From Acidobacteriota bacterium (GTDB taxonomy: Bacteria > Acidobacteriota > Terriglobia > Terriglobales > SCQP01), in contig DAHUYO010000007.1 in assembly GCA_027315185.1 (NCBI GenBank), forward strand, positions 1,725 through 65,724: a DNA stretch of 64,000 nt. The letters are read 5' to 3'. A program made the position numbers and the translations under genes. Within the stretch, counting starts at the first letter, position 1. Every line of letters starts with the position of its first letter. The notes below the pieces were generated by a model. The model did not search any database. It was not told the origin of the DNA and saw only the letters and a list, made by a program, of their open reading frames with translations. Below, one piece after another: positions 1 through 43,356 of the stretch.

Positions 1-2
1 CG

Positions 3-254
3 GTGGAGCTGGGCAAGGAGGGCATCAACGCCAACACGCTCTCCGCCGGACCGGTGGATACCGACGCGCTGCGGCTGTTTTCCACCTATGGCCAAATGAA
101 AGAAGCCTGCGAGACGCTCTCCCCGGCCGGGCGCATCGGCACGGTGGAGGACGTGGCGGAGGTAGCGGTGTTTCTCTGCTCGGACGCCGCCAATTGGATC
201 TACGGGCAGACGATTATCGCCGATGGGGGCCTGTCCCTCATGAGCTTGCGCTAG
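3..254 (+). CDS. Enoyl-ACP reductase-like SDR (FabL/FabI family), 5'-truncated by window edge
   Basis: SDR C-terminus 'NTLSAGPVDTDAL...GRIG..EDVA..FL.S...W.YGQTIIADGG'; the 'VDTDAL' motif resembles FabL; lies in the FAS-like cluster. Confidence 0.7.
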   Translation: MELGKEGINANTLSAGPVDTDALRLFSTYGQMKEACETLSPAGRIGTVEDVAEVAVFLCSDAANWIYGQTIIADGGLSLMSLR

Positions 255-304
255 GCGGGCCGCGACGCCGCCAGCGACATTGAGAAACGGAAGGAAATAC
301 GCAA

Positions 305-787
305 ATGCCGCCAGTCAATAGCGCCGAGGAAGTTCTACAAATCCGGGAGACCGCCGACCGCGTGTTGGCCAGCCGCCATGATGAGATTCTGGCCACGGTG
401 CAAGCCGCGATCGCCGAGGTGCTCGGATGCGAGGTGGAAGAGGTGAAACCCAACTCCAGCCTGATGACCGATCTGCACGCGGAATCACTGGACTTTTTGG
501 ATCTGCTGTTCCGGTTGGAGTCGGCGTTTGGCATCAAGATTCCGCGCGGCGGGATCCAGAAGGCCACGCAGGGCTCGCTGAAGGAAAGCGAGTTCCAGCA
601 AAACGGCGTGCTGACCGAAGCGGCGCTGGAGCGGCTGCGGCTGCTGATGCCGGAGGTGGATCCGCAGCGACTGCATCCGGGGCTGACGTCGCGGGAAATC
701 CCGACGTTGTTTACCGCCGAAACGTTTACCCGCCTGGTGGCCTGGCGCCTGGGAGACGGCGAGGCGGCGAAGGCGCAAGTAGGGTAG
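305..787 (+). CDS. Acyl carrier protein with long internal insertion (160 aa)
   Basis: 'LMTDLHAESLDFLDLLFRLESAFGIKIP' with Ser at the phosphopantetheine site; about 45 extra residues before the last helix 'LFTAETFTRLV'; SD-like GGAAGGA upstream. Confidence 0.85.
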   Translation: MPPVNSAEEVLQIRETADRVLASRHDEILATVQAAIAEVLGCEVEEVKPNSSLMTDLHAESLDFLDLLFRLESAFGIKIPRGGIQKATQGSLKESEFQQNGVLTEAALERLRLLMPEVDPQRLHPGLTSREIPTLFTAETFTRLVAWRLGDGEAAKAQVG

Positions 788-791
788 CGCG

Positions 792-1325
792 GTGCGTTTC
801 CTGCTGATTGACCGGATCCTGGAATTGGAGCCGGGACGGTACGCGGTGGGCGTGAAGACGCCCAGCCTGGGCGAGGACTATTTCGCCGATCACTTTCCGG
901 GCTTCCCGGTGGTGCCCGGGGTGCTGCTGGTGGAGGCGATGGCGCAACTGGCCGGGCGGCTGATCGCGTACTCGGTGCGGGCGGAAAGCGGCGAGGTGGT
1001 GCTGCCGGTGCTGCTGGGCATCAGCCAGGCGCGGTTCCGGCGCTTTGTCCGCGCCGGGGACCGGGTGGTGATCCGCGCGGAACTGCTGGGGCTGACCGAC
1101 GGCGGCGGGCGCTGCAAGGCGGAGGCGCGGGTGGAGGAGCAGTTGGTGGCGGGAGCGGAAGTGATGCTGGGGTTCGACACCGGCCGGGGCGCCGGGGTGA
1201 TCCCGATGGCGGCACGCCAGAAGCTGGAATCGTGGGCCGATGACGTGAACCGGAATTTGCTCGGCGAGGAGCTGCACGCGCGGCTGACGGCGCCGCGGGC
1301 GCCGGCGCCGGAGGCGCAGGCGTGA
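792..1325 (+). CDS. 3-hydroxyacyl-ACP dehydratase FabZ/FabA-like
   Basis: 'RFLLIDRI' and 'YFADHFPGFPVVPGVLLVEAMAQ' with catalytic His and Glu. Confidence 0.9.
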   Translation: MRFLLIDRILELEPGRYAVGVKTPSLGEDYFADHFPGFPVVPGVLLVEAMAQLAGRLIAYSVRAESGEVVLPVLLGISQARFRRFVRAGDRVVIRAELLGLTDGGGRCKAEARVEEQLVAGAEVMLGFDTGRGAGVIPMAARQKLESWADDVNRNLLGEELHARLTAPRAPAPEAQA

Positions 1326-2662
1326 CGGCGGGGGGCAATGGAGCGGGCCGAAACGGTGCGGGACGCCGCCGCCGGGTGGTCATCACCGGGCTGGGCGCGG
1401 TCACGCCGGTGGGCCAAACGGTAGAGGAGACGTGGCGGTCGCTGCAAGCGGGGCGCTGCGGCATTGAACGCATCTCGGTCTTCGACGCCAGCACCTTCGA
1501 GACGCAGATCGGCGGCGAGGTGCGGGGATTTCGCTTCGACCGGCTGGGCGCGCCGGCGGCGCTGGCGGAGGTGCTGGACCGCAAGAACAGCTTTGGCTTC
1601 GCGGCGGCGCAGCAGGCGATGGTGGATGCCGGGCTGGCGCGGGCGGACGCGGCGCCGGGTCCTCCGTCGGAGGAGCTGGTGGAGCCGACACGGTTCGGCA
1701 TCAGCCTGGGCACGGAAGGGCGGCGGGACCGGCTATTGCCGGAGCTGCGCAGCCGCAAGCTGGCGCCGGCGGGCTTGGAGGCGCGGCGCCAGGCGCTGGC
1801 GGAAGTGCCCGGGGATGAATACCTGCGCTACTCGCCGTATGGGCTGGCGTACCTGCTGAGCGGGACGTGGGGCGCGCGGGGGCCGATCACGACCATTTCC
1901 ACCGCCTGCACGTCGAGTTCGCAGGCGCTCGGTTACGCGCTGGAGAAAATCCGCTACGGCGATGCGGACGTCATGTTGGCGGGCGGGGCGGAATGCCTGA
2001 TGGAGCCGACGATGGTGGCGAGTTTTATTTTGCTGGGCGCGCTGTCGAAGCGGAACGATTCGCCGCAAACGGCGTCCCGGCCGTTTGACGCCACGCGCGA
2101 CGGATTCGTGCTGGCGGAGGGAGCCGCGATGCTGGTGCTGGAGGATGCCTGGCACGCCTACCGGCGCGGGGCCCGCATTTACGGCGAGGTGGCGGGCTTC
2201 GGCTGCTCGATCAACGCCTACCGGATCACGGATTCGCCGCCGGACGGGGAAGGGCCGTTTTTGGCCATGCGGGCGGCATTGGAAGACGCCGGGATTCGCG
2301 CCGAGGACGTGGATTACGTCAACGCCCACGGCACTTCGACGGTGCAGAACGACGCCAGCGAGACGATGGCGATCAAGCGCTGCCTGGGCGGGTACGCCCA
2401 GCGGGTGCCGGTGAGCTCGACGAAATCCATGACCGGGCACATGGTGAATGCAGCCGGGGCGATCGAGGCGGTCATTTCGACGCTGGCGATTCGGGACGGT
2501 TACATTCCGCCAACGATCAATTACGAACATCCCGATCCGGCCTGCGATTTGGACTGCGTGCCCAACACCGGGCGGCGGCAGCCGGTGCGGACGGTGGTCT
2601 CGAACTCCTTCGGTTTTGGCGGGTCGAACGGCTCGCTGGTGATCCGGGCCTATGTCGCTTGA
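1322..2662 (+). CDS. Beta-ketoacyl-ACP synthase (FabF-like), catalytically intact (KS1)
   Basis: Cys in 'TISTACTSS', His in 'NAHGTST', His in 'KSMTGHM', terminal 'NSFGFGGSN'; GTGA overlap with fabZ. Confidence 0.92.
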   Translation: MTAGGNGAGRNGAGRRRRVVITGLGAVTPVGQTVEETWRSLQAGRCGIERISVFDASTFETQIGGEVRGFRFDRLGAPAALAEVLDRKNSFGFAAAQQAMVDAGLARADAAPGPPSEELVEPTRFGISLGTEGRRDRLLPELRSRKLAPAGLEARRQALAEVPGDEYLRYSPYGLAYLLSGTWGARGPITTISTACTSSSQALGYALEKIRYGDADVMLAGGAECLMEPTMVASFILLGALSKRNDSPQTASRPFDATRDGFVLAEGAAMLVLEDAWHAYRRGARIYGEVAGFGCSINAYRITDSPPDGEGPFLAMRAALEDAGIRAEDVDYVNAHGTSTVQNDASETMAIKRCLGGYAQRVPVSSTKSMTGHMVNAAGAIEAVISTLAIRDGYIPPTINYEHPDPACDLDCVPNTGRRQPVRTVVSNSFGFGGSNGSLVIRAYVA

Positions 2663-3986
2663 GATGGAGGCGGGAGTGAACGGGCGGGGTGGCGGACGGC
2701 GGGTGGTGCTCACGGGAGTGGGGCTGGTGTCGCCGCTAGGCAACGATGCCGAAACGTTGTGGCGCGAGCTGGCGGCGGGGCGGTCGGGGCTGGAGCGGGC
2801 GGAGGAGTTCGCCACCGGAGGGTTCCGCACGCAGGCCTGCGGCCGGGTCCGGGAGTTCAACCCGCGGAAACTGATCGCCGACGCCAAGACGCTGAAACTG
2901 ATGACCCGGCCGGTGCGGCTGGGGGTGGCGGCCTTGGAGCTGGCGGTGGCGGACGCGCGGCTGGATTTGAGCAACGTGGATCCGTTTCGCGTCGCCTCCT
3001 ACGTGGGTTCGCCGGGGCACGCGGGCGACCGCGACGAGCTGCTGCCGGCGCTGGAGCGGGCCAGCCGCGGAGGGGACAGCGGGTTGGATTTGCAGGCGTT
3101 TGGCGCCGAAGGCATCGCCACGATCAACCCACTGTGGCTGCTGAAGAGCCTGGCCAACATCGTGCTGTATTTCGTCAGCATGAAGGTGGGGGCGCAGGGA
3201 CCGAACGGCAACATCTGCATGAGCGGCGCCGGCGGCGTGATGGCCATCGGGGAGGCGTTCCGCTGCTTGCGGCGGGGGGCGGCGGACATCGCGGTGGCGG
3301 GGGGATACGAATCGCTGCTGGAAGAGGAGCGGCTGGAGAGCTTCGAGCCGTCCGGGCTGCTGTACCTGGGCAATGGAGTGGCGGCGCAGGCCAGCCGGCC
3401 GTTTGATCGCGACCGCGCGGGGTTCGTGCCGGCGGAGGGCGCGGCGTTCGTGGTGCTGGAGGAACGCGAGGCGGCGCTACGGCGCGGCGCGCGCATCTAC
3501 GGCGAGGTCACCGGCTACGGGCTGGGCAGCCCCGGCTGCGTGGGACGGCCGAGCGAAACCGCGGAGGCCTTCCTCGGCGCGATGCAGGCGGCGGTGGCGG
3601 ACGCGCGCCGCGATCCGTGGGAACTGGACGCGATTTCGGCCTACGGGCTGGGGACGGTGCAGAGCGACCGGGCGGAGGCCGAGGCGCTGAAGGCGTTGCT
3701 GACGGCGCGGGCGGCGTATGTGCCGGTGACGGCGGTGAAATCCGCGACGGGCAATTTTTCCGCGGGCTCCGGACCGCTGGAAGTGATCGCCGGCTGCGGC
3801 GTGTTGCAGGGGGCGATGCCGGGATTACCGGCGATCTTGAACTGCGAGCATCCCGATCCGGATCTGGGGCTGGATTACGTGCGCGACCGGCCGCGGGCGG
3901 GCAGCTATCGCCGCCTGTTGGTCAATTCCGCCAGCCTGTCCGGGGCCGCCGCCAGCGTGGTGCTGGAAAGCGGCGATCCGGCCTAG
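2652..3986 (+). CDS. Catalytically inactive ketosynthase homolog (chain-length-factor-like), full length
   Basis: KS motifs (RPFDRDRAGFVPAEGA) are present, but Cys>Gly ('GPNGNICMSGAGG'), His>Tyr ('SAYGLGT') and His>Asn ('KSATGNF'); start may be 2664. Confidence 0.85.
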   Translation: MSLEMEAGVNGRGGGRRVVLTGVGLVSPLGNDAETLWRELAAGRSGLERAEEFATGGFRTQACGRVREFNPRKLIADAKTLKLMTRPVRLGVAALELAVADARLDLSNVDPFRVASYVGSPGHAGDRDELLPALERASRGGDSGLDLQAFGAEGIATINPLWLLKSLANIVLYFVSMKVGAQGPNGNICMSGAGGVMAIGEAFRCLRRGAADIAVAGGYESLLEEERLESFEPSGLLYLGNGVAAQASRPFDRDRAGFVPAEGAAFVVLEEREAALRRGARIYGEVTGYGLGSPGCVGRPSETAEAFLGAMQAAVADARRDPWELDAISAYGLGTVQSDRAEAEALKALLTARAAYVPVTAVKSATGNFSAGSGPLEVIAGCGVLQGAMPGLPAILNCEHPDPDLGLDYVRDRPRAGSYRRLLVNSASLSGAAASVVLESGDPA

Positions 3987-4049
3987 CGCCGCCGCGGGCG
4001 GCGCCGCGGGGGCGGGAGCCAATTGGGAATGGGAGCAAATGGGCAAGGC

Positions 4050-4796
4050 ATGAACCGCTTACAAGGCAAATTCGCATTGGTCACCGGGGGCAGCCGGGGC
4101 ATCGGGCGGGCCGTGGCCTTGCGCTTGGCGCAGGAAGGCGCGCGGGTGGCGGTCAACTATCGGGCCAACGCCGGGGCCGCGGAGGAGGTCGTGGCAGCCA
4201 TCACCGCCGGCGGCGGCCAGGGACAAGCCTTTGCCGGCGATGTCAGCCAGCCGGAAGCGGCGAAAGCCCTGGTGGAAGGGGTGGCGCGGGAGTTCGGGCG
4301 GTTGGACATATTGGTGAACAACGCCGGCATGGTGCGCGACGGTCTGCTGCTGACGATGGATGACGCGCAGTGGCGGGAGGTGCTGGCGACCAATTTGGAC
4401 GGGGTGTTCTATTGCTGCCGGACGGCGGCGCGGATCATGTTGCGGCAGCGCTATGGGCGCATCGTCAACATGTCCTCGGTCGCGGGGGACACGCCCAACC
4501 GCGGGCAGGTGAATTATGCCGCCTCCAAGGGGGGCATCAATGCGCTGACGAAGGCCTTGGCGCAGGAGCTGGCCAGCAAGAACATCACGGTGAACGCGGT
4601 GGCGCCGGGAATGATCGAGACCGAAATGAGCCAGGAGGTGCGGGAACTGGCGGGGGCGGAAATTCTGAAGCATATCGCCCTGAAGCGCTACGGAAAACCG
4701 GAGGAGATCGCCGCGGCGGTGGCGTTTTTGGCTTCGCCGGACGCGGACTACATCACCGGCCAAGTATTGCGCGTGGACGGGGGCCTAGCCGGGTGA
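4050..4796 (+). CDS. fabG: 3-oxoacyl-ACP reductase
   Basis: TGGSRGIG Rossmann motif, NNAG, 'GQVNYAASKGG' YxxxK; start placed at ATG 4050. Confidence 0.9.
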   Translation: MNRLQGKFALVTGGSRGIGRAVALRLAQEGARVAVNYRANAGAAEEVVAAITAGGGQGQAFAGDVSQPEAAKALVEGVAREFGRLDILVNNAGMVRDGLLLTMDDAQWREVLATNLDGVFYCCRTAARIMLRQRYGRIVNMSSVAGDTPNRGQVNYAASKGGINALTKALAQELASKNITVNAVAPGMIETEMSQEVRELAGAEILKHIALKRYGKPEEIAAAVAFLASPDADYITGQVLRVDGGLAG

Positions 4797-5584
4797 AGGT
4801 GGTGGCGGAGCGGGAACGCGAAGCGGTGGTGACGGGCAGCGGCGTGCTCCTGCCGTGGGGCGTGGGGCCGGCGGCGCTGGCGGCGACGGGTGCGGCGGGC
4901 CGCATCAGCAGCTTCAATCCGCGCGAGTACATTCACAATGCCAAGGCGCTGCGGGCCATGCATCGCGGCTTCCAGTTGACGGCGGCGGCGGCGGCGATGG
5001 CCCTGAGCGCCGCGGGATTGGGCGGCGACGCGGAGGGACTGGCGGCAGCCGGGCTAGACCCGGAACGCGCCGGGGTGGTGATCGCGGCGGCGGACATCCA
5101 GCCGGTGACGCCGGATTTGCTGGCGGTGCTGGCGGCGCAGGAGGACAGCAGCGAACCGGCGGGATGGGGGGAGGCGGCGCTGCACGGGTTGCACCCTTTT
5201 CGGCGGCTGCACCTCCTATCGAACATGGCGGCGGCGCATGTGTCCATTTTGTTCAATTTCCAAGGCCCGAGCTTAACGCTGACCAGCGGGGCGGAGGCCG
5301 GGGCGCAGGCGCTGGAGGAAGCGGCAGGGCTGCTGGCCGAGGGGCGCGCGGACCTGGTGCTCTGCGCGGCCAGCGACTGCCCGGAACAAACCCTGACGCC
5401 GGGGGAGGGGGAAGCGGCGGTGGCGTTGGTGCTGGAGGCGCGCGGCGTGGCGCAGCGGCGCGGCGTGCGCGGCGCGCAAGACTGGCGGGGCGGAGACCAG
5501 GGCGCGCCGTGGGCGCAAGGGTGGCCGCAGTGCGCCGCGTTATTGACGGCGTCGCGCGCCGCCGCACGGGTGGAGGCGGGGTAA
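4793..5584 (+). CDS. Truncated inactive ketosynthase N-terminal-domain protein (short CLF-like, 263 aa)
   Basis: GTGA overlap with fabG stop; KS N-domain motifs 'VVTGSG', 'LSNMAAAHVSI..NFQGPSLTLTSGAEAGAQAL' (Cys>Ala), 'GEAAVALVLE'; no C-terminal His motifs. Confidence 0.75.
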   Translation: MKVVAEREREAVVTGSGVLLPWGVGPAALAATGAAGRISSFNPREYIHNAKALRAMHRGFQLTAAAAAMALSAAGLGGDAEGLAAAGLDPERAGVVIAAADIQPVTPDLLAVLAAQEDSSEPAGWGEAALHGLHPFRRLHLLSNMAAAHVSILFNFQGPSLTLTSGAEAGAQALEEAAGLLAEGRADLVLCAASDCPEQTLTPGEGEAAVALVLEARGVAQRRGVRGAQDWRGGDQGAPWAQGWPQCAALLTASRAAARVEAG

Positions 5585-5586
5585 GG

Positions 5587-6834
5587 ATGGCGGGCAAGCG
5601 GGAGGTCTGGATCAGCGGCGTGGGGGTGGTGAGCGCGCTGGGCGTGGGCGTGGCTGCGCACCGCGCGGCGCTGGCGGCAGGCCGGGGAGGCATCAACTGG
5701 ATCCGGCATTTTCCCAGCAGCGGTTTTCCGGTGCGCATCGCCGGCGAAGCGCCGGCCGCGGGGCTGCCACCGGGTCCGGGGCGGCTGCACTATTTCGCCG
5801 CGGTGGCGCTGGCGGAGGCGCTGGACCAGGCGGCGCTGCCACGGCCCGAAGGGGGCGACGACGCGGCGCGAGCGGTGGTCTGGGCGGTGGGCAAGCCGGC
5901 GCTGCCGGTGGACGAAGTGCGCGGCTGGGCGGCGGCGGGAAAGGGATGGGATTGGGGCGAACTGCGGCGGCGGTACATCACCAGCCTGGAGGACAAACAA
6001 CTCACCCCAGCCGATCTGCTGAAGCGATTGGCGCGCGCCGGCGGGGCCGGGGGGCGGCGGGTGGCGTGCTACACCGCCTGCGCGTCGGGCAACGACGCGC
6101 TGGGCATGGGCAAGCGGATGATCGAGCGCGGCGAGGCCGAGGTGGTGCTGGCCGGCGGAGCGGACTCCCAGGTGGACCCATTGAGTTTGCTGGAATTTGA
6201 ACTATTGGCGGCGCTGGCCCATCCCGCGCCGGGCGAGGATCCGGCGACGGTGTGCCGGCCGTTCGACCAGCGGCGCAGCGGTTTCGTGGTGGGCGAGGGC
6301 GCCGGAGCGCTGGTGTTGGAATCGGAGGATCACTTGCGCCGCCGCGGTGGGGCGCCGCTGGCGCGGCTGGCGGGGTATGGCAGTTCGCTGGACGCCTTTG
6401 GCCTCACCAAATGCCATCCGGAGGGCCGGGGCGCGGCGGCGGCGATGCGCGCGGCGCTGGCCGACGCGGGCGAACCTCCCGCGGCTGTGGATTATATCAA
6501 CGCGCACGGCACGGGAACGGTGCTGAACGACCGCGCCGAGGCGGCGGCGATCCATCGGGTGTTTGGCGCCGCGGCGCGGGAGGTGGCGATCAGCAGCACC
6601 AAGGCGATGACCGGGCATTTGATCGCTGCGGCTTCGGCGGTGGAGGCGGTGTTGTCGGTGCTGGGGTTGGAGGACGGCTTCATTCCGCCCTCGCTCAACT
6701 ATCGCGACCCGGATCCGGAATGCGACCTGAACGTGGTCACCGGCGCCGGGCGGCGGGGGGCGGTGCGGATGGTGCTATCGAATGGGTTTGGATTTGGCGG
6801 ACAGAACGCCTGCGTGGTGCTGGCCAGGGCATGA
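5587..6834 (+). CDS. Second intact beta-ketoacyl-ACP synthase (KS2)
   Basis: 'YTACASG', 'INAHGTGT', 'KAMTGHLIAA', 'NGFGFGGQN'; start ATG 5587 after TAAGG. Confidence 0.9.
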   Translation: MAGKREVWISGVGVVSALGVGVAAHRAALAAGRGGINWIRHFPSSGFPVRIAGEAPAAGLPPGPGRLHYFAAVALAEALDQAALPRPEGGDDAARAVVWAVGKPALPVDEVRGWAAAGKGWDWGELRRRYITSLEDKQLTPADLLKRLARAGGAGGRRVACYTACASGNDALGMGKRMIERGEAEVVLAGGADSQVDPLSLLEFELLAALAHPAPGEDPATVCRPFDQRRSGFVVGEGAGALVLESEDHLRRRGGAPLARLAGYGSSLDAFGLTKCHPEGRGAAAAMRAALADAGEPPAAVDYINAHGTGTVLNDRAEAAAIHRVFGAAAREVAISSTKAMTGHLIAAASAVEAVLSVLGLEDGFIPPSLNYRDPDPECDLNVVTGAGRRGAVRMVLSNGFGFGGQNACVVLARA

Positions 6835-6922
6835 ACGCGAGAAACCATGGGACCGCGGGCCGGACGCGCGGCGCGGGCGGGAGCGCGGCCGGGGCGAGGT
6901 ATGCCATTGTGGAGGAAGGGCC

Positions 6923-8260
6923 ATGCTAGAGGGCATTTTTGATTTTCTCGACCGCCGCTTCCTGCGCACGCCGGAAAACCGGCTGTGGATGGCACAGCGG
7001 CTGCCGCCGGGGTTGATTACGCGCTTGCAGGCGGGCAAGTTCGCCGACACGGTGCGCTATGTGGCGAAGCATTCGCGGTTTTACCGGGAAAAGTTCCGCG
7101 AGCACGGTATTGACCCGGCCCAGGTGCGCACCCATGCGGATCTGGGCGACTTCTTCACGACGCCGGAGGACTTGCGGGAACGGCCGGTGGAGGATTTTCT
7201 CTGCGCCAAGCCGGAGTTCGGTTTCGAAACCACCGGAACCTCGATGGGGATCAACAAGCGCGTGTATTTCTCCTACCAGGAGATGTTCGATTACGGCCGC
7301 GACGGGGCGGTGGGGTTGTACAACCTGGGGCTGCGCCCGGAGGACGTGGTGGCGGACGGGTTTGACTACTCGTTTTGGAACGCGCCGTTCACCGCCTATT
7401 ACTCGATCATGGCCATCGGCGCGTTTCACGTCATCGGCGCCTTCGTCGAACCGCAGGAGTTTTACGACCGCATCAAGGTGTACAAGCCGAACGTGATCAT
7501 GGGCGTGCCGACGCACCTGGTGCGCGTGACCGAGGTGGCGGAACGCTGCGGTACCTGGCCGGTGAAGCTGGTGTTCCTGGGCGGCGAGAACCTGAGCGAG
7601 CGCACGCGACAGTACATGGAGGGTGTCTGGCGCGGGGCGAAAGTGCATCTGAGCTACGGCCAGACCGAAGCCTTCGGCATGAACGGGGTGGAATGCCCGG
7701 AAAAGGGCGGCTATCACCTCGGCGCCTTGGCGCTGACCAGCGAGATCTTGAACCCGGATGAGGAAGGCTATGGGGAGCTGGCGTACACGACGCTGAACCG
7801 CACGGTCATGCCGCTGATTCGCTACCGGTCGGCCGACATCACGCGCTGGGCCAGTGACGGGGAATGCCACTGCGGGCTGCGGATCATGCCGCGGATCGGC
7901 AAGATCATCGGCCGCAGCGACGAGCTGATCAACTGCTCGATGGGCAACATCAGCCCGTACTGGTTCGAGGAGATGCTGCGCGGAGTTCCGGAGGTGACCG
8001 ATGACTGGCAGGTATTCGTGCGGCGGGGCGACCGCGACGACCGCATCGAGTTCCATTTGGAGCTTGTCAACGGTGCGTCTCCGGAGGAAGTGAAAAATCT
8101 CATTTTCCGCAATATCGAAAGCCGGTTTCCGGATTGCTGGCGGTATTATCAGAAGCGATTTTTCGAATTCGATTTCCAGTTTCACGCGCCGCGGACGATT
8201 AGCGAAGGCCGCAAACTGAAGCGGTTGATTGACGCGCGGCGGGATGCGTGGAATCAATAA
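6923..8260 (+). CDS. Phenylacetate-CoA ligase (PaaK)/F390 synthetase-like adenylate-forming enzyme
   Basis: 'FETTGTSMGINKRV' P-loop, 'SYGQTEA', 'MPLIRYRSADI', 'IGRSDE'; SD GGAGG upstream of ATG 6923. Confidence 0.8.
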   Translation: MLEGIFDFLDRRFLRTPENRLWMAQRLPPGLITRLQAGKFADTVRYVAKHSRFYREKFREHGIDPAQVRTHADLGDFFTTPEDLRERPVEDFLCAKPEFGFETTGTSMGINKRVYFSYQEMFDYGRDGAVGLYNLGLRPEDVVADGFDYSFWNAPFTAYYSIMAIGAFHVIGAFVEPQEFYDRIKVYKPNVIMGVPTHLVRVTEVAERCGTWPVKLVFLGGENLSERTRQYMEGVWRGAKVHLSYGQTEAFGMNGVECPEKGGYHLGALALTSEILNPDEEGYGELAYTTLNRTVMPLIRYRSADITRWASDGECHCGLRIMPRIGKIIGRSDELINCSMGNISPYWFEEMLRGVPEVTDDWQVFVRRGDRDDRIEFHLELVNGASPEEVKNLIFRNIESRFPDCWRYYQKRFFEFDFQFHAPRTISEGRKLKRLIDARRDAWNQ

Positions 8261-8313
8261 GTGGAGCCGCCGTCGGCCGGGGCTCACCAATTGCCAGGAA
8301 AGGCGGAGAGATC

Positions 8314-9630
8314 ATGCCCACACTAGCCCAGAATGGCGGCGCCCGCGCCGTGCCCGCGAATGCGGCCAAGACCTATTGGCCGGTGGTCACGCCGGAGGAC
8401 AAGCGCGCCGTGGCCGCGGTGCTGGACCGCAACGTGTTGTGGGCGATGACGACGCTGGAAGGGCTGCGGTGCCCGGAGCAGGATGCGCTGGAGCGCGAGT
8501 TCGCGGCCTTCCTGGGAGCGCGGCACGCGATCGCGGTGAACGGCGGCACGGCCGGCCTGCATATGGCATTGGTGGCCAGCGGGGTGCAGGCGGGCGACGA
8601 GGTGATCACCAGCGCGTATTCCTTCCTGGCGACGCCGGCGGCGATCTTGCACGCGGGCGCGATTCCGGTGTTCGTGGATATTGACCCGCGGACCTTCAAT
8701 TTGGATCCGGGCAAGATCGAGGCCAAGATCACGCCCCGCACGCGGGCCATCCTGCCGGTGGACATTCACGGGCTGTGCGCGGATTACGACGCCATCGAGG
8801 CCATCGCCAAACGGCATGGCCTGCTGGTGGTGGAGGACGCCTGCCAGGCGCCAGGAGCGACGTATCACGGCCGCGGAGCGGGGCGGCTGGGCCGGGCGGC
8901 CGGCTTCAGCGTCAACGGGACCAAGAACTTCTCCGTGGGCGAAGGCGGCTTCATGGTCACCGACGACGACGAGGTGTACTACCGGGGCAATTGGCTGAAG
9001 CAGGTAGGCGAAACGTTACCGGCGGACGATCCCACCATGCGGCAGCAACACTTGCTGGCGTGGAACTACCGGGTGCAGGAGATGCCCTGCGCGCTGGCGC
9101 GCGTGCAGCTGCGCCGCCTGGCTGAGGTGAATGAACGGGGACGGCGCAACGCGGCGATTCTGGATGGATATCTCAAAGACATCCCGGGCCTGCGGGCGCC
9201 GTACATTCCCGCGGGTTGCGTTTCCGTGTATCACAAATACCGGGTGACGCTGGAGCCGGAGGCGTTGGACACGCCGCAGCGCGGACAAGCGCTGCGCGAC
9301 GCGTTCATGGCGGCCTTGACCGCGGAAGGCGTGGACGTGGACCTGTGGGGTACGGCGCCGCTGCCGGCGCATCCGATGATCCGCGCCCGCCACGGCTTTG
9401 GCCGGGGCCTGCCCTGGAGCTTGCATCCGGAGGTGGACTATAGCGACAGCGCCGAGCAATACCCGGTCACGCAGCGCATGTTCGCCGAGTCCTTTTGCCT
9501 CAGCAACGATGAGTATCCGATCTTCGCCCAGAGTGAGAGCCTCATGCACGCCTACGGCGAAGCCTTGCGCAAGGTCGCCCGGCATGCGGGCGAGTTGCAC
9601 GCCGCGGCGGCCTGGCAAACCGCGACCTAG
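8314..9630 (+). CDS. DegT/DnrJ/EryC1/StrS family PLP aminotransferase
   Basis: 'NGGTAGLH', 'GDEVI', 'VEDACQAPGA', PLP Lys in 'FSVNGTKNFSVGEGG', 'WNYR'. Confidence 0.9.
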   Translation: MPTLAQNGGARAVPANAAKTYWPVVTPEDKRAVAAVLDRNVLWAMTTLEGLRCPEQDALEREFAAFLGARHAIAVNGGTAGLHMALVASGVQAGDEVITSAYSFLATPAAILHAGAIPVFVDIDPRTFNLDPGKIEAKITPRTRAILPVDIHGLCADYDAIEAIAKRHGLLVVEDACQAPGATYHGRGAGRLGRAAGFSVNGTKNFSVGEGGFMVTDDDEVYYRGNWLKQVGETLPADDPTMRQQHLLAWNYRVQEMPCALARVQLRRLAEVNERGRRNAAILDGYLKDIPGLRAPYIPAGCVSVYHKYRVTLEPEALDTPQRGQALRDAFMAALTAEGVDVDLWGTAPLPAHPMIRARHGFGRGLPWSLHPEVDYSDSAEQYPVTQRMFAESFCLSNDEYPIFAQSESLMHAYGEALRKVARHAGELHAAAAWQTAT

Positions 9631-9727
9631 GCCGGCAGCATACGGTGCGGCCGCGGCGGGACCGGGCCGGCGCCGGGAATTGCAACGCCGCGGGCCAGGG
9701 CTTCATCTCCTTATTAGGAGTATCGCC

Positions 9728-10771
9728 ATGGCCAGTCCCGCCCGCGTGCCCTTGAACCCGCAGCGGCGTGGACCGCAGGCCGAACGGCTGTACGCCGCGC
9801 TGCAAAAGCGCATCGTGGGCCAAGATGCCGCCCTGGGTCCGGTGGTGGACGCCGTACAAACGTTTTTGGCGGGAATGCAGGCGCAAACCCGGCCGGTGGC
9901 CAACTTTTTATTTTTGGGGCCAACGGGAACGGGCAAAACGCACGTGGTGGAGTCGCTCGCCGCCGCGCTGTTTCAACACCCACGGGCGGCGATCAAGGTG
10001 GACTGCGGAGAATTCCAGCACGGCCATGAGATCGCCAAGCTGATTGGCTCGCCGCCGGGATACCTGGGACACCGCGAAACGCATCCGGTGTTGACGCAAG
10101 AAGCGCTGAACCAGCACCACGCGGCGGAAATGCCGCTTTCGCTGGTGCTGTTCGATGAAATCGAAAAGGCCTCCGATGCGCTGTGGCAGTTGCTGCTGGG
10201 GATTTTGGATAAGGCGACACTGACGCTGGGCGACAATCGCCGCACCTCGTTCGCCCAAGCCTTGATCTTCATGACCAGCAACCTGGGAGCGGCGGAGATG
10301 AGCCAATTGCTGACACCCGGACTGGGCTTCGCGCCGCCGGGACGGGGCGACCTGGAACGGCGGCTGGCGACGGTGGCGACCGAGGCGGCGCGGCGAAAAT
10401 TTTCTCCGGAGTTCTTTAACCGGCTCGATTCGGTGGTGGTGTTCCATCCCTTGGACGGCGGGCAGCTGGAACGAGTGCTGGATTTGGAACTGGAGTGGGT
10501 ACGGGAACGGCTGGGCCACGCGGGCTCGCCGGCGGCGTTCCCCTTTCGCTGCACCGCGGCGGCCAGGGAGCTGCTATTGCGCGATGGCGCCGACCGCAAA
10601 TACGGGGCGCGGCATTTGAAACGGGCGATCGAGCGGTTGCTGGTGCATCCGCTGGCGAATTTGATCGCCACGCGGCAGGTTTTGCCGCAGGACGTGCTGG
10701 TCGTGGATGTGGATGAGACGCGGACGGCGCTGGCCTTTGCACGGGAGCAGGCCGCGCGGCAGCGCGGGTAA
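9728..10771 (+). CDS. Single-domain ClpA/ClpB/ClpC-type AAA+ ATPase (NBD2 only)
   Basis: 'IVGQD', Walker A GPTGTGKT, pore loop 'LIGSPPGYLG', Walker B 'LFDEIEKA', 'MTSN', 'PEFFNRLD', 'YGARHLKR'; SD TAGGAG. Confidence 0.88.
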   Translation: MASPARVPLNPQRRGPQAERLYAALQKRIVGQDAALGPVVDAVQTFLAGMQAQTRPVANFLFLGPTGTGKTHVVESLAAALFQHPRAAIKVDCGEFQHGHEIAKLIGSPPGYLGHRETHPVLTQEALNQHHAAEMPLSLVLFDEIEKASDALWQLLLGILDKATLTLGDNRRTSFAQALIFMTSNLGAAEMSQLLTPGLGFAPPGRGDLERRLATVATEAARRKFSPEFFNRLDSVVVFHPLDGGQLERVLDLELEWVRERLGHAGSPAAFPFRCTAAARELLLRDGADRKYGARHLKRAIERLLVHPLANLIATRQVLPQDVLVVDVDETRTALAFAREQAARQRG

Positions 10772-10783
10772 GGCATCCGCGGC

Positions 10784-12709
10784 TTACTGGATTGGGATGT
10801 AGGTGACCGCGCCGGCGGCGTTCACTTGGTTGCTATCGGCAGGGCTGGATGGCGCCGAAGCCTGCTCCATGGCGGCGAGGTCCACGCGGGCCAAATACTT
10901 GCCATCGCCGCGCAGCGCCAAGCCATAGATGGTGCTGTTGAGACCGATCATGACCGTTTCGGCTTGCGGGGCGGTGGCATTGGACCAATCCACGCCATCC
11001 GGTCCGGCGCCGAGCTGCGCCCAGCGAATGGCGGCCGGCGCCGCCGGGGAGCCGGCGAAGGGGGCGCTGGGCAGGGTCGCCACCGCCAGACAGCCGCCGG
11101 AGTTGCCCAACCACGCCAAATGGCTGCTGGGCTCCAATTGCGCGGCGCGCCAGCCTCCGCTACAGGCGCTGGTGACGCTGAACTGGGCCGCCGGGGCGGT
11201 GATGCTGCCGCCGGACGCGGTGGCGGCGTTAAAGTTAATGGCCGTGTATTCGCCGCTGGCGGCATCGGCCAGCAGACCGAGCGAAGTGCTGGGATCAAAG
11301 GCGGCAGCGGTCAATTCCGACCCCAAAGTGAACCCAGCGGTGCTGGGCAGGGAATACGACTGGACGGCGCCGGTGGCGAGATTGATGACATTGAGGCCGG
11401 AGCCGCTGGAGGTGAAGTACGGAGCGAAGATGCGCTGGGTGGCGGAGTCGTAGGCGAAGTTTTCCGCCGCGGGAGCGGCGATGGGGGTGGAGGCGGCGCC
11501 GGTGGCGAGATTCAGGGTCAGATAGCCGGACGCGGTGTCGAGAATCGCCTCATTGCGGCTGGCGTCCACCACGGCGCCGCAGACGCCGCAGGTGAAGCCG
11601 TCACTGAAGGTCGTGGTGGCGCTGTTCGGGATGGCGTAGGTATTGGTGACGGTGTCGTTGGTTGCGTCCACCAGCACCAAGCTGTTGGTAGTGGCGCTGG
11701 TGACCGCGACGGTGTTGGTCTGGGGGTCAGCCGCCGCCGCGGTAGGAGCGAAGCCGCTGGGCATGGCGATGTCCACCGGCGTTCCACCGCTGCTCAGTTG
11801 CTGTCCGGTGTCGCCGTTGACCACCGCGACATGGTTGGCGCCGGCCAGGGGCACATAGACCTTATTGGCGAGAATGGGCGCGCCGCTGGAGTTGGCGCCG
11901 ACGGATTCGATCAGATCCGCCAATGCGGACGAGGCCGCGGGGCTGTCCGGTTCCACCACGACGTTCACCGGATTGGCGGGCGTGCTGTTGGGGCTGGTGA
12001 TTCCGATCTGAGTCAAACCGGCGGCGTTCACCGTGACCGGGACGGTTAACGACTGGAAGGGCGCGGTAGCGCCGGTGGGGGCGACGACCGCGCCGGCGGC
12101 GCCGCTGCTGATGGTGGCGACGGAATTGGAATATAGGAACTGGCCGTGCAACGTAAGGGTATAGCTGTTGCCCTGGACCATGGCCGGAACCGATTGCGGA
12201 TTGCTGCCGCTGGTCTGCAGCGTGACCGAGGTCAGCACCGGCGCCGGGGTGGTCAGTTGCACCTGGGCTTGGGCGTGCGCCGAACTCAAAGCCTGGGCGC
12301 TGACGGTGACGACAAAGATGTCGTGGGCCGGTGGGAGGGCAGGCGCGGTGTAAAGACCGGTGGAATCAATGGTGCCGTAGGGTGCAGAGCCGTCCGGCTC
12401 CTTGCCGCCAGGCAGGTCGTTGCCGCTCACCGGGTCCACGATGGACCAACTGACTTTGTGATCGGGGCTGTAGTAGACCGCAGCCTTAAACTGTTGCGTT
12501 CCCGGCGAAATCTTCCCGCTGCTGTCCTCGGTGGCCAACGGAATGACCACGGGACCAAACCCGATCGGGCCAGCGGAGGGGTTTATGGTCACCGAGGGTT
12601 GGGGCGGCGGAATATAGTAATTCTGGCATCCGGCCAACAGCGCCGCGAACGCCAAGGTGGACAGGCAAAGGAGAAGTGGGCGCGGACGCGGAAAGGGCAA
12701 AAGCACCAT
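10784..12709 (-). CDS. Ser/Thr/Ala-rich lipoprotein with Ig-like and probable beta-propeller domains
   Basis: Lipobox 'LLAGC'; 'GTIDSTGLYTAP' Ig-like motif; propeller-like blades (VYV..., AAADP..., FAYD..., AAFDP...). Confidence 0.7.
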   Translation of the reverse strand: MVLLPFPRPRPLLLCLSTLAFAALLAGCQNYYIPPPQPSVTINPSAGPIGFGPVVIPLATEDSSGKISPGTQQFKAAVYYSPDHKVSWSIVDPVSGNDLPGGKEPDGSAPYGTIDSTGLYTAPALPPAHDIFVVTVSAQALSSAHAQAQVQLTTPAPVLTSVTLQTSGSNPQSVPAMVQGNSYTLTLHGQFLYSNSVATISSGAAGAVVAPTGATAPFQSLTVPVTVNAAGLTQIGITSPNSTPANPVNVVVEPDSPAASSALADLIESVGANSSGAPILANKVYVPLAGANHVAVVNGDTGQQLSSGGTPVDIAMPSGFAPTAAAADPQTNTVAVTSATTNSLVLVDATNDTVTNTYAIPNSATTTFSDGFTCGVCGAVVDASRNEAILDTASGYLTLNLATGAASTPIAAPAAENFAYDSATQRIFAPYFTSSGSGLNVINLATGAVQSYSLPSTAGFTLGSELTAAAFDPSTSLGLLADAASGEYTAINFNAATASGGSITAPAAQFSVTSACSGGWRAAQLEPSSHLAWLGNSGGCLAVATLPSAPFAGSPAAPAAIRWAQLGAGPDGVDWSNATAPQAETVMIGLNSTIYGLALRGDGKYLARVDLAAMEQASAPSSPADSNQVNAAGAVTYIPIQ

Positions 12710-12767
12710 CCAGGCTGGATTTTGCGGCGCCGCCCCTGATTCCCGGGCGGCCCAGCGGGTAAAAGGG

Positions 12768-12773
12768 ATTATA
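12768..12773 (-). promoter_or_regulatory. -10 element (TATAAT) upstream of lipoprotein gene
   Basis: Perfect TATAAT on minus strand about 60 nt upstream of the start, in a locally AT-rich patch. Confidence 0.45.
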
Positions 12774-12953
12774 CAAGAGGGCTGGGCAACAAGGCAGAGG
12801 GCAAATGCCGGAGTTGTGGGCTAAAAAGCGCAATCACGGCATTGGAGGCGAACCCGCCTTCCCAAAGGGGCGAATGCGGGGCGGCTTTGCTGGTCGGGTG
12901 GGATGCTGCCCGGCGCAACGCGCCGCGGCGACAGGCCTGGTTCGCCGGGCTCG

Positions 12954-13490
12954 CTAGGCGGCGCGGCGGCGGCGCGGCGCTTCGCTGGCCGCGTCCTCGG
13001 CCATGCCCTCGGTCCAGTGCAGCTTACTCGCCTTCAGCAGTTCCAGCACGAGCTTGGCGGTTTCCTGCTCTTCACGCAGAGTTTCCCGCAGCAGGCGGGC
13101 CGCATCCCGATGGCCCATTTGCTGCGCCAAAAAGCTGAGGGTCTCGTAGGCGGAGGTTTCGTAGCGCTCGATTTGCAGGGCCGCGAGCAGGGTGTTGAGA
13201 TCGCGCAATTCGGGATTGAGGCCCTCGACCACGGCGCTGTGCTTCTCCGCCATCAACCCGTCCAAGCCGGGGCAAGCCGTTTCCCGGGACTCGGCGCCGA
13301 TGGCATGAAAGACCGCCTCCAAGCGTTGGAGATGACCTTCGGTCTGCTTGCGGTGGCGCGCGAAGGCGCGCTTGGCGTCGCCGCGTTGGGTGTCGCGCTC
13401 GGCGTCGGAGAGGACGGCGAGCAGCTGTTTTTCGGTGCTTTGGAGATGCTGAAGTTGATGGATCAAGAACTCATGCGCGGTTTGCATCAT
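12954..13490 (-). CDS. YciF/DUF892 ferritin-like stress protein
   Basis: 'TEKQL', 'HRKQTEGHLQRLEAVF', 'CPGLDGL', 'QIERYETSAYETL', 'TLREEQET'; SD GGAGG. Confidence 0.85.
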   Translation of the reverse strand: MMQTAHEFLIHQLQHLQSTEKQLLAVLSDAERDTQRGDAKRAFARHRKQTEGHLQRLEAVFHAIGAESRETACPGLDGLMAEKHSAVVEGLNPELRDLNTLLAALQIERYETSAYETLSFLAQQMGHRDAARLLRETLREEQETAKLVLELLKASKLHWTEGMAEDAASEAPRRRRAA

Positions 13491-39762: not shown

Positions 39763-41700
39763 ATGAGCAAAATCATCGGCATTGATCTCGGCACCACCAA
39801 CAGCGTTGTGGCGGTGATGGAAAACGGCGAGCCCAAGGTTCTGCCCAACTCCGAAGGCGGGCGCACCACCCCCTCGGTCGTGGCCTTCACCAAGGCCGGA
39901 GAACGCCTCGTCGGCCAAGTCGCCAAGCGCCAAGCCATTACCAATCCGGAGAACACCGTTTACTCCATCAAGCGCTTCATGGGCCGCCGCTACAACGAGG
40001 TCAATGAGGAGATGAAAATGGTCCCCTACAAGGTCGAGCAGGCCGGGGATCACGTCGTGGTCGTCGCCGGCGGCAAGAAATACACCCCGCCCGAGATCAG
40101 CGCCTTCATCCTGCAAAAACTGAAACAAGCCGCCGAGGATTATCTCGGCGAGAAGGTCACCGACGCGGTGATCACCGTTCCCGCTTACTTCAACGACGCC
40201 CAGCGCCAGGCCACGAAGGACGCGGGCAGAATCGCCGGATTGGACGTCAAGCGGATCGTCAATGAGCCGACGGCCGCCGCCTTGGCCTACGGCCTAGACA
40301 AGAAGAAGGACCAGACCATCGCCGTCTATGACTTCGGCGGCGGCACCTTCGACATCTCCATCCTGGAAGTCGGCGAGGGCGTGGTCGAAGTCAAATCCAC
40401 CAACGGCGATACCCACCTCGGCGGCGACAACATTGACCAGCGCCTGGTGGATTGGCTGGTGGATGAGTTCAAAAAGGAAGAAGGCATTGACCTCCGCTCC
40501 CGCGGCAACGAGATGGCCTTGCAGCGCCTCAAGGATGCCGCCGAAAAAGCCAAGATGGAGCTCTCCACGACGGTGGAAACCGAGATCAACCTGCCCTTCA
40601 TCACCGCCGACGCCAACGGACCCAAGCATCTGCTGAAAAAGCTCGGCCGCGCCCAGTTCGAGCGCATGGTGGAGGACATTTTGCAGCGCACCGTCGGCCC
40701 TTGCAAGCAGGCTTTGCAGGACGCCGGCGTCGGCGCCGACAAGATTCATGAAGTCGTCCTGGTCGGCGGCAGCACGCGAATTCCCCGCGTGCAGCAGATC
40801 GTCAAGGATTTGTTCGGCCGGGAACCCAACCGCAGCGTCAACCCCGACGAGGTGGTGGCCGTGGGCGCGGCGGTGCAAGCCGGCGTGCTCGCCGGCGAGG
40901 TCAAGGACCTGCTGCTGCTCGACGTGACCCCGCTCTCCCTGGGCATTGAAACCATGGGCGGCGTGTTCACCAAGCTGATTGACCGCAACACCACCATCCC
41001 GACGCGCAAAAGCGAGATCTTCTCGACCGCCAGCGACAATCAGACCTCGGTCGAGGTGCATGTGCTCCAAGGCGAACGCGCCATGGCGGCGCAGAATCGC
41101 ACCTTGGGCCGCTTCCATCTCGACGGGCTGCCGCCCGCGCCGCGCGGCCTGCCGCAGATCGAAGTGACGTTTGACATTGACGCCAACGGCATGGTCAATG
41201 TCAGCGCGCTGGACAAGGGTACCGGCAAGGAGCAGAAAATCACCATCACCAGCTCCAGCGGCCTGTCCAAGGAAGAGGTCGAGCGCATGACCCAGGACGC
41301 CAAGGCGCACGAGGCCGAGGACAAACAGCAGCGCGACTCGGTGGAGGCCAAAAACCAGCTCGACAGCCTGGTCTATAACTCCGACAAGCTGTTGAAGGAA
41401 AATCGCGAGAAGATTTCCGCCGACGACGCCCGCGCCATTGACGAAGCCTTGGCCGAGGCCCGGCAGGCGTTGGAAAAGAACGACGTCGCGGCCATGACCG
41501 CGGCCCGGGACAAGCTCACCAGCGCCACCCACAAATTGGCCGAGGCCATGTACCGCCAATCGGGTCCGCCTCCGGGCGCGGCCGGGGCCGCGCCCGGCGC
41601 CGATGCGGGCCAGGCCGCGCCGCCTCCGGAAGGCAACGGCCAGGCCAAGGGCGACGTCATTGACGCCGAATACGTGGACGTGGACAACGAGAAGAAATAG
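39763..41700 (+). CDS. dnaK: Chaperone DnaK
   Basis: '[11 protein letters not shown]', '[14 protein letters not shown]', 'DFGGGTFD', 'VGGSTRIP'. Confidence 0.99.
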
Positions 41701-41779
41701 CGCTGCCGCGGGCAGCAGCCGGGGATCCGGCGGCGGGCAGGCGCGCGCGCCTGCTTCGCCGCCTGTACACTGAACTCGC

Positions 41780-42955: not shown

Positions 42956-43356
42956 GAAAGCGGGGCCGCGGCGCCTACATGATCTCCGCCGTTGCCGAGC
43001 AGTACGGCGTGCATCCGCAGACCCTCCGCTTGTATGAGCGCGAAGGCTTGCTCAAGCCCTCCCGCACCGAGGGCAACACCCGCCTCTATACCGACGAGGA
43101 TCTCAAGCGCCTGGAGATGATCCTGGTCCTTACCCGCGATATGGGCGTCAACCTCGCTGGGGTCGAAGTGGTGTTGGACCTGCGCCAAAAGATCGAGGCG
43201 TTGCAGGACCACATGCGCCAGCGGGAAGAGGATATGCATCGCCAGATGCAAGCCTTCGTGGATTTCGTCCAGCGCGAAATGCTCACCCGCGCCCCGCAAT
43301 CCGGCCCCAGTGAAGCCCTCATCCCCCTCCGCCGTCCCCTCGCCCGCAAACCCTAA
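42952..43356 (+). CDS. hspR: Heat-shock repressor HspR (MerR family)
   Basis: '[36 protein letters not shown]...GVNLAGV'; follows dnaK-dnaJ. Confidence 0.9.

Follow-up and report, generated by a model that had tools for sequence, protein, structure and literature searches.

What does a bacterium make with a fatty-acid-type gene set that lies apart from its housekeeping one, and how does nitrogen enter the product? The question is raised by a 64,000-nucleotide stretch of Acidobacteriota bacterium DNA, here called the window (G000:C241:1725-65724; contig DAHUYO010000007.1 of assembly GCA_027315185.1), from the draft genome of an uncultured soil member of the Terriglobales (3.77 Mb, 263 contigs, 64–72% GC, 86% completeness). 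An earlier note, made from the sequence alone, had read the ten genes at the start of the window as a reducing type II polyketide synthase/fatty acid synthase (PKS/FAS) cluster with two pairs of ketosynthase (KS) and inactive KS, an aryl-type ligase and an aminotransferase. Its observation was confirmed and its interpretation partly supported. At a probability of roughly 45%, we propose a dedicated reducing type II FAS/PKS-like line that shares one operon with an inositol-to-aminocyclitol branch. Direct observation established the gene set, the catalytic triads of four KS-type proteins, a housekeeping FAS encoded elsewhere, and strict conservation in one uncultured Terriglobales family. The product is probably a nitrogen-containing lipid not yet described.

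Open reading frame (ORF) listing with Pfam and NCBIfam scans of window positions 3–9630 bore out the packed run, with all ten genes on the + strand and in the order first described: enoyl reductase (ER), acyl carrier protein (ACP), dehydratase (DH), KS1, a full-length inactive KS of the chain-length factor (CLF) kind (CLF1), ketoreductase (KR), a short CLF, KS2, a PaaK-like ligase (LIG1) and a DegT-family aminotransferase (AT). Stop and start codons overlap by 4 nt at DH/KS1 and by 11 nt at KS1/CLF1, the GTG start of the short CLF overlaps the KR stop codon as GTGA, and 2 nt separate the short CLF from KS2. The cluster had also been expected to continue 5' of the window, and it does. The 1724 bases of contig that precede the window hold the rest of the reductase gene and, directly upstream of it, a myo-inositol-phosphate synthase (MIPS) gene, INO1, truncated by the contig end. 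The full INO1 is found in a metagenome-assembled genome (MAG) of 99% identity, on a contig of 194 kb (L001, G001:C3), where a second PaaK-like ligase gene (LIG2, 52% identity to LIG1) lies directly 5' of it; in the window's own genome LIG2 is on contig C234. As read from translations, an MglA-like GTPase ORF (L070 16625-17248, G001:C3) stops 48 bases 5' of LIG2, and beyond it lie a tetratricopeptide repeat (TPR) ORF and a divergent glmU-like gene, with flagellar genes farther upstream. Because the GTPase, TPR and divergent glmU-like genes lie beyond it, LIG2 is probably where the cluster begins. The cluster spans about 12 kb on a single strand.

A scan of one genome per species recovered 69 ligase loci in four layouts, termed types A to D. 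Gene presence was scored by tblastn, since simple ORF picking gave antisense ORFs (c25, c29, c38-c42) in GC-rich loci; one match, L069, is weak and probably unrelated (37% identity over 105 residues). Type A, the layout of the window, comprises 23 Terriglobales/Acidobacteria MAG loci with the order (LIG2)-INO1-ER-ACP-DH-KS1-CLF1-KR-sCLF-KS2-LIG-AT-(AAA+), where sCLF is the short CLF. This order is complete and collinear in 17/23 loci (a count that includes L013 and L019, held in the unpublished-flagged genomes G002 and G003) and collinear until the contig end in the other 6. Recurrence of an 11-gene order in 17 of 23 related loci makes the arrangement more than chance. All 27 genomes searched in the window's family (f1; 7 genera) carry the ligase family, as against none of 273 sister-family genomes of the same order at E <= 1e-90; judged by genome quality, the sister family (f2) appears to hold cultured genera. 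These tallies, and those for INO1 and the dehydrogenase IolM below, include genomes flagged unpublished (G012, G022, G024, G026, G030, G034 and G040, with G090 and G235 added for INO1). Since every genome of the family that was searched has the cluster, its product is more likely a structural or envelope lipid than a sporadic antibiotic.

The remaining layouts share the ligase in other company. In type B (L023-L027, L037, L058, L064), the FAS genes and INO1 occupy one strand and a LIG-AT-alcohol dehydrogenase-inositol monophosphatase (IMPase) unit is divergent; its hosts are other Acidobacteriota, Vicinamibacterales among them, and one Betaproteobacteria MAG. Type C, from Omnitrophota, uncultured Planctomycetia and one Eisenbacteria MAG, has a family 2 glycosyltransferase gene and an ER gene divergent from a main run encoding a hexapeptide protein, a hotdog protein, KR, a long ACP, an AcpS-like phosphopantetheinyl transferase, DH, CLF, KS, an MtnX-like haloacid dehalogenase (HAD) phosphatase, a class III aminotransferase and LIG. 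After LIG come genes for an LPG_synthase_TM protein, a CDP-alcohol phosphatidyltransferase and an aminotransferase resembling PhnW (352.9 bits, cutoff 360.8), and type C may be a phosphonate- or amino-lipid locus. Its glycosyltransferase (L047 and others) is a membrane, HpnB/CruG-like protein. Type D (L030, L031, L035; Terriglobia and one Blastocatellia MAG) combines ACP, a single KS, a metallo-beta-lactamase (MBL)-fold protein, LIG, a TPR protein, a glycosyltransferase resembling monogalactosyldiacylglycerol synthase, a HAD protein, a class III aminotransferase and a FabZ-like protein, a set that hints at a glycosylated product. An aminotransferase gene is present in 57/69 ligase loci, 31 of them DegT and 26 class III but never both; most of the other 12 loci are truncated on the flank concerned.

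That the run is the primary FAS of its host is ruled out by a canonical pair on another contig (G000:C190:34301-35767), where a fabF of 634.6 bits (cutoff 493.75) adjoins an acpP of 105.9 bits (cutoff 70.45). Together with the KS triads, this pair upholds the earlier view of a specialised, dissociated reducing type II FAS/PKS. The genome holds a third ACP and KS pair at G000:C197:7929-9476 (61.5 and 435.8 bits, both under cutoff), and in a quick tree its KS groups with the type D KS of L030 (support 100).

In an alignment of the four KS-type proteins, KS1 (1322..2662, +; NF005589, 446.7 bits, cutoff 387) and its paralogue KS2 (5587..6834, +; Pfam, NCBIfam, alignment and tree) retain the Cys-His-His triad of active enzymes, and NCBIfam PRK06501 is the sole top-ranked model that covers both in one unbroken stretch. 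CLF1 (2652..3986, +; Pfam and KS alignment) is full length with Gly, Tyr and Asn at these positions, and all 6 aligned type A orthologues keep Gly, then Tyr, Gln or His, then Asn. An intact-triad KS thus adjoins a Cys-less homologue, the feature of KS/CLF systems. The short CLF (4793..5584, +; 263 residues; Pfam ketoacyl-synt, 42.4 bits) consists of the N-terminal KS half only; it lacks the catalytic Cys, and the C-terminal half is missing. It is not a gene in decay: other genera keep an intact ORF, and the alignment has 73 invariant columns, among them a LHPFRRL...NMAAAH...QGPS stretch.

The history of the two pairs was approached with a quick maximum-likelihood tree with Shimodaira-Hasegawa-like approximate likelihood ratio (SH-aLRT) support, built on 48 rows (21/69 loci, the window and two other KSs of its genome) after removal of 4 short-CLF rows. 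Cluster KSs of types A, B and C formed one clade (SH-aLRT 96) separate from housekeeping FabF, CLF1 formed its own clade (100), and the KS1 clade of types A and B (99) was sister to the corresponding KS2 clade (99) with weaker support for the sister relation (87). On this topology the two KS pairs are old paralogues, with the single pair of type C nearest to them. The earlier note had further suggested that both pairs form KS-CLF heterodimers. For the second pair, complex modelling supports binding of KS2 to the short CLF, scoring 0.95 where the best of 3 controls scored 0.00; 58/80 solved complexes and 2/110 mismatched pairs reach the mark set for this score. Three runs agreed in at least 97% of contacts, with partner pLDDT of at least 85. 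The pass may reflect likeness to solved KS dimers.

The other chain-building enzymes are consistent with a largely reduced product. The reductase, a short-chain dehydrogenase/reductase (SDR) of which the 3' end (83 codons, 3..254, +) lies in the window and the full gene at G000:C241:1211-1975, has FabL as its best NCBIfam match (260.7 bits, cutoff 328; scored on the L001 copy, 100% identical by tblastn). The next family reaches 188.7 bits, and with FabL so clearly on top, enoyl reductase is a fair name despite the sub-cutoff score. The KR (4023..4796, +) is a FabG-type 3-oxoacyl-ACP reductase (TIGR01830, 306.8 bits, cutoff 297.75), and the DH (792..1325, +) a FabZ-like 3-hydroxyacyl-ACP dehydratase (Pfam FabA-like, 65.2 bits; NCBIfam fabZ, 107.6 bits, under cutoff). 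The ACP (305..787, +; Pfam PP-binding, 37 bits) is enlarged to 160 residues. Its core spans residues 25–85, with the Ser in an ESLDFLD motif, and an insert of ~50 residues, common to types A, B and C, adds helices after the helix III region and before the last helix. An AlphaFold model (pLDDT 90.3, predicted template modelling score (pTM) 0.85) has 7 helices. In a Foldseek search, ordinary ACPs aligned with it over ~55 residues only, and a specialised ACP of Rhodopseudomonas palustris, RPA2022, over ~127 columns at a weak E of 2.5e-3. No Foldseek match reached E <= 0.001, leaving likeness to RPA2022, presumably an AcpXL-type protein, as a lead only. An ACP of this size could enclose a long or bulky chain.

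The source of nitrogen is where the comparative loci alter the earlier interpretation. INO1, taken from the L001 copy, matches Pfam NAD_binding_5 (PF07994, 273.5 bits), Inos-1-P_synth (PF01658, 109 bits) and PDB 7nwr (434.5 bits), and is a true MIPS. INO1 occurs in 298/301 genomes of the order. Genomes of f1 mostly have two copies, one in the cluster (70–100% identity) and a second at 57–60%, and those of f2 have one; by these comparisons the cluster copy reads as an extra, dedicated paralogue. In type B, the alcohol dehydrogenase, which matches scyllo-inosose 3-dehydrogenase IolM (NF041097, 471.2 bits, cutoff 450), is in the cluster in 8/8 loci, and the IMPase (215 bits) in 7/8. The window genome carries an IolM-type gene unlinked to the cluster (G000:C227:7502-8677, L071; 486.6 bits, cutoff 450). 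Such a gene is present in 25/27 f1 genomes, the two without a match being 73% and 54% complete, versus 0/93 f2 genomes, the same split as that of the ligase. In two genomes, G026 and G012, it shares a contig with the cluster at a distance of 12–27 kb. An IMPase homologue of the window genome (41% identity) is also on a different contig from the cluster.

The aminotransferase (8314..9630, +; 439 residues) is a long-form member of the pyridoxal phosphate-dependent DegT/DnrJ/EryC1/StrS family (PF01041, 287.9 bits). Its best solved relative, over the full length, is Fic25 (8gyh/8gyj, 275.6 bits), followed by perosamine synthetase (187.6 bits), glutamine--scyllo-inositol transaminase (7b0d, 181.2 bits) and L-glutamine:2-deoxy-scyllo-inosose aminotransferase (5w70, 171.6 bits); among NCBIfam models, ArnB scores 182.6 bits and PseC 195.8 bits. 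We took 8GYH as Fic25 because the available text of PMC11726168 names 8GYJ, which belongs to the same sequence group. According to that text, Fic25 aminates a hydroxyl-flanked ketone, a keto-diol, on a carrier-protein-bound chain. The substrates of the nearest solved relatives, Fic25 and then the inosose transaminases, are ketones with flanking hydroxyls and not nucleotide sugars, and action of the window enzyme on an inosose is predicted from this similarity. A route of the same kind, in which MIPS, phosphatase, dehydrogenase and aminotransferase furnish the aminocyclitol, is proposed for hygromycin A (PMC10949010, as far as its available text goes). The extra INO1, the type B IolM and IMPase genes, the matching IolM split and the long-form DegT relatives together suggest that nitrogen enters through an inositol-derived aminocyclitol. 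Nitrogen incorporation as first claimed is thereby retained, but it need not occur by amination of the chain.

How the two branches meet depends on the ligase. LIG1 (6923..8260, +; Pfam AMP-binding and AMP-binding_C_2) has the DVU_1553 family as its best NCBIfam match at 134.2 bits (cutoff 300). Identity as the phenylacetate-CoA ligase PaaK was rejected at 103.6 bits on TIGR02155 (cutoff 646.3); haloarchaeal PaaK scores 108.9 bits (cutoff 700) and FlxY 105.6 bits (cutoff 520), and the best solved relative is phenylacetate-CoA ligase 4r1l (104.7 bits). The label aryl-type is accordingly dropped, and LIG1 is best described, on profile scores, as a PaaK-fold adenylate-forming enzyme of an uncharacterised family far from every named one. 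Its homologues among the 120 matches listed all come from metagenomes or MAGs under generic names; those with an organism name are Terriglobales/Acidobacteria, except one Betaproteobacteria MAG. The ligase stands beside cyclitol-branch genes in every arrangement (LIG2-INO1, LIG1-AT, INO1/LIG and INO1-LIG), the last in an Actinomycetota MAG locus (L032), and in type B it shares its orientation with the genes that tailor the cyclitol and is opposite to the FAS genes. Given these cyclitol and aminotransferase neighbours and the shared orientation in type B, we read it as acting on or with the amine product through amide formation. PaaK-like enzymes that form esters or amides without coenzyme A (CoA) exist; solved relatives of the ligase include 6siw and 6wuq, which we take to have such chemistry. 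A role in loading a starter onto the ACP, by analogy with AmcH of cispentacin synthesis, is a plausible alternative, especially as type C encodes a hexapeptide protein whose best match is the Pls/PosA C-terminal domain (99.4 bits), a domain that presumably moves a carrier-bound acyl group to a free amine.

In the pathway that we favour, KS1/CLF1 and KS2/short CLF would act as heterodimers and, with the FabG-type KR, FabZ-like DH and FabL-like ER, would extend and largely reduce a chain on the enlarged ACP, FabD malonyl loading and phosphopantetheinylation being supplied by housekeeping enzymes. The INO1 paralogue would furnish inositol phosphate; IMPase and the IolM-type dehydrogenase, from genes clustered in type B and located elsewhere in the window genome, would convert it to a keto-inositol, and the DegT enzyme would turn this into an inosamine. 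The PaaK-like ligase or ligases would adenylate a carboxylic acid. Within this reading, a little under half of the weight goes to coupling of the released acyl chain to the aminocyclitol, which would give an N-acyl-aminocyclitol lipid, and somewhat under a third to charging of the ACP with a starter other than acetate, the role that AmcH plays in cispentacin synthesis.

Several points weigh against this pathway. In the window's genome both the IolM-type dehydrogenase and the IMPase homologue are encoded outside the cluster. The f1/f2 split amounts to one phylogenetic contrast, which makes co-occurrence there weak by itself. Characterised IolM oxidises scyllo-inosose, not myo-inositol, and the carrier-protein-bound substrate of Fic25 fits amination of an acyl chain equally well. 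Omnitrophota and Planctomycetia clusters share ACP, ER, KS/CLF and ligase but lack INO1 within 10 kb and pair a HAD phosphatase with a class III aminotransferase; the amine part is therefore not universal. The Pls/PosA-like hexapeptide protein of type C could itself transfer the amide, leaving the ligase as a loader. No thioesterase that would free the acid was found in the type A cluster, an MBL-fold protein being present in types B and D only. Finally, likeness to solved KS dimers may be all that the KS2/short CLF model registers.

Of the alternatives, the one that survives best, though we hold it unlikely, is an amino fatty acid route on the logic of cispentacin and Fic25, in which the ligase loads an unusual starter acid on the enlarged ACP, the KS pairs extend it and the DegT enzyme aminates an ACP-bound ketone, with the inositol phosphate synthase giving a separate head group or being merely co-regulated. 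In the cispentacin pathway, as set out in the available text of PMC10698177, AmcH adenylates 2-oxoglutarate and loads it onto an ACP, a KS pairs with the short KS-like AmcG, and the ketone, still bound to the ACP, is the substrate of a class III aminotransferase. The cispentacin/coronafacic acid genes AmcB-H resemble the window in joining KS, a short KS-like partner, a hotdog protein, an ACP, an adenylating enzyme and an aminotransferase in one operon. Further in its favour, the window aminotransferase is closest to Fic25, with its carrier-protein-bound keto-diol, types C and D place a class III aminotransferase beside the ligase, and the short CLF weakly matches AmcG. A cluster of the cispentacin type was nonetheless rejected, as its models fall far under their NCBIfam cutoffs (AmcF 207.9 bits for KS1 and 210.6 for KS2 versus 325; AmcG 18.9 versus 80; AmcE 44.1 versus 140). 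AmcG has 157 positions and no known motif, whereas the short CLF is a recognisable 263-residue KS N-domain, and the window differs further in a DegT, not class III, aminotransferase and in its second, full KS/CLF pair, KR, ER and INO1. The route also leaves unexplained the dedicated INO1 paralogue, the type B LIG-AT-IolM-IMPase operon and the phosphatases beside both kinds of aminotransferase.

Clearly less probable is an envelope system of the AcpXL kind, in which ACP, FabZ and two KSs would elongate housekeeping chains to very long ones for an outer-membrane lipid and the DegT enzyme and ligase would tailor that lipid at an amino sugar or head group. The ~127 columns that the ACP model aligns with RPA2022, compared with ~55 for ordinary ACPs (E 2.5e-3), and the unbroken cover of both KS1 and KS2 by PRK06501 point this way, on our assumption that PRK06501 and PRK06508 are linked to XL genes. 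So do the presence of the cluster in every f1 genome searched, which fits a structural lipid, and the ArnB and PseC scores of the aminotransferase. The ACP-DH-KS-KS order and the specialised longer ACP equal those of acpXL-fabZXL-fabF1XL-fabF2XL-lpxXL in Rhizobiales (PMC5613085, available text), yet no LpxXL-type acyltransferase is among the cluster genes, to which this search was confined. The window further contains dedicated KR and ER genes together with a second KS pair, ligases, an aminotransferase and INO1. The long-form aminotransferase is closer to enzymes of non-nucleotide substrates, and INO1, IolM and IMPase find no place in such a system.

An aryl-polyene, flexirubin or ladderane-type cluster, the probable label from automatic callers of biosynthetic gene clusters (BGCs), is very improbable: KS/CLF pairs with KR, DH and PaaK-like ligase do occur in such systems, FlxB and FlxY give 266.6 and 105.6 bits and anammox clusters carry FabF, FabFmut and 'phenylacetyl-CoA ligase', but a FabL-like ER leads the run, all genes from LIG2 to the AAA+ gene are otherwise assigned, which leaves none for radical S-adenosylmethionine (SAM), B12-radical SAM or phytoene desaturase proteins, genes for export or anchoring are neither among the 12 cluster genes nor were recognised by eye, without a Pfam scan, in the ORFs that follow, FlxB and FlxY fall below cutoffs of 340 and 520, and the host is an acidobacterium of 64–72% GC.

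Set beside known systems, the cluster has familiar parts. Polyene-forming highly reducing type II PKSs, aryl-polyene systems included, work without enoyl reduction, and aryl-polyene clusters carry export and anchoring genes as well. These clusters share two kinds of ketosynthase with the window, with ApeO-ApeC as one KS-CLF heterodimer and ApeR as the other enzyme (PMC8358021, available text), whereas in the window both KSs have a dead partner, an ER is present and no lipid-anchoring or export genes were seen. The aryl-polyene and ladderane comparison drawn earlier therefore holds for the KS/CLF logic and fails on the remaining gene content. Ishigamide Iga11/Iga12 and anammox amxFabF2/amxFabFmut likewise set an active KS beside a Cys-less one, with a dedicated ACP, KR and DH, and amxFabF2/amxFabFmut form a KS/CLF-like heterodimer according to the available text of bioRxiv 10.64898/2026.05.19.726425. 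Relative to these, the window has two KS/CLF pairs, one with a half-length partner, and adds an ER, a double-size ACP and the inositol/aminotransferase branch, with no radical SAM or desaturase. The earlier note was right that candidate ladderane clusters of anammox bacteria combine FabF with a mutated FabF, and a 'phenylacetyl-CoA ligase' is present there too (Rattray 2009, PMC2649909); radical SAM/B12-radical SAM and phytoene-desaturase homologues stand beside FabF/FabFmut there (same source and Granatino 2026, in their available text). Surveys of soil MAGs list 'ladderane' BGCs beyond the anammox bacteria as well, where their function is not known (PMC7298704, available text). The hygromycin A cluster resembles the window in placing MIPS (Hyg18) and an aminotransferase (Hyg8) together. 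Its phosphatase (Hyg25) and cyclitol dehydrogenase (Hyg17) have counterparts clustered in type B and located elsewhere in the window genome, and the dehydrogenase here is Zn-dependent and IolM-type, not PF01408 (Gfo/Idh/MocA). The window further differs in an acyl partner from KS/CLF pairs, in its uncultured acidobacterial host and in the presence of the cluster in all family genomes searched. A full-text literature search returned nothing linking type II KS/CLF systems to inositol or inosamine. The component enzyme families are familiar; their combination, with two KS/CLF pairs, a double-size ACP, an uncharacterised ligase family and an inositol-to-amine branch, seems new, as no description of it was found.

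Downstream of the aminotransferase, a gene for an AAA+ protein with a ClpB-D2-like module only (9728..10771, +; 349 residues; NCBIfam ClpB, 231.5 bits over model positions 559–850) follows directly here and in 10 type A loci, and its membership in the cluster is uncertain. A convergent lipoprotein-like ORF of 641 residues (10784-12709, −; cluster c22), rich in Ser, Thr and Ala and with a signal peptide containing Cys, keeps the same position in 5 loci. By ORF starts, the rest of the window looks like housekeeping DNA (dnaK, dnaJ, ffh, trmD, prfA and others), including an ordinary heat-shock operon at 39763-43356 (+) with dnaK-dnaJ followed by a small MerR/HspR-like ORF. Scans of positions 1–13000 gave no operon boundaries, with 1 promoter-like site versus a shuffled mean of 1.2, nothing above controls, and 7 terminator-like sites versus a shuffled mean of 9.3. 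Near-identical DNA was found in sequencing runs from 8 studies labelled mine drainage, soil and wastewater metagenomes; RNA was absent from the 21 runs listed.

With the ligase in 27/27 genomes of one family and 0/273 of its sister, the cluster is a candidate source of a lineage-specific lipid biomarker for acidic soils and sites of mine drainage. The Omnitrophota and Planctomycetia relatives hint at a wider family of pathways, members of which automatic tools probably label 'ladderane' or 'arylpolyene'. We also entertain a bolder and doubtful extension, in which the chain built by the two KS/CLF pairs is amide-linked by the new ligase to an aminocyclitol as the signature membrane lipid of this Terriglobales family, with analogous lipids made by the sister clusters. 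If so, the family would form a ceramide-like 'inosamine lipid' without serine palmitoyltransferase. The sister clusters of other Acidobacteriota, Omnitrophota and Planctomycetia, with their class III aminotransferase and HAD phosphatase, would then make analogous N-acyl amino-polyol lipids, and a widespread, undescribed class of bacterial amino-lipids would be at hand.

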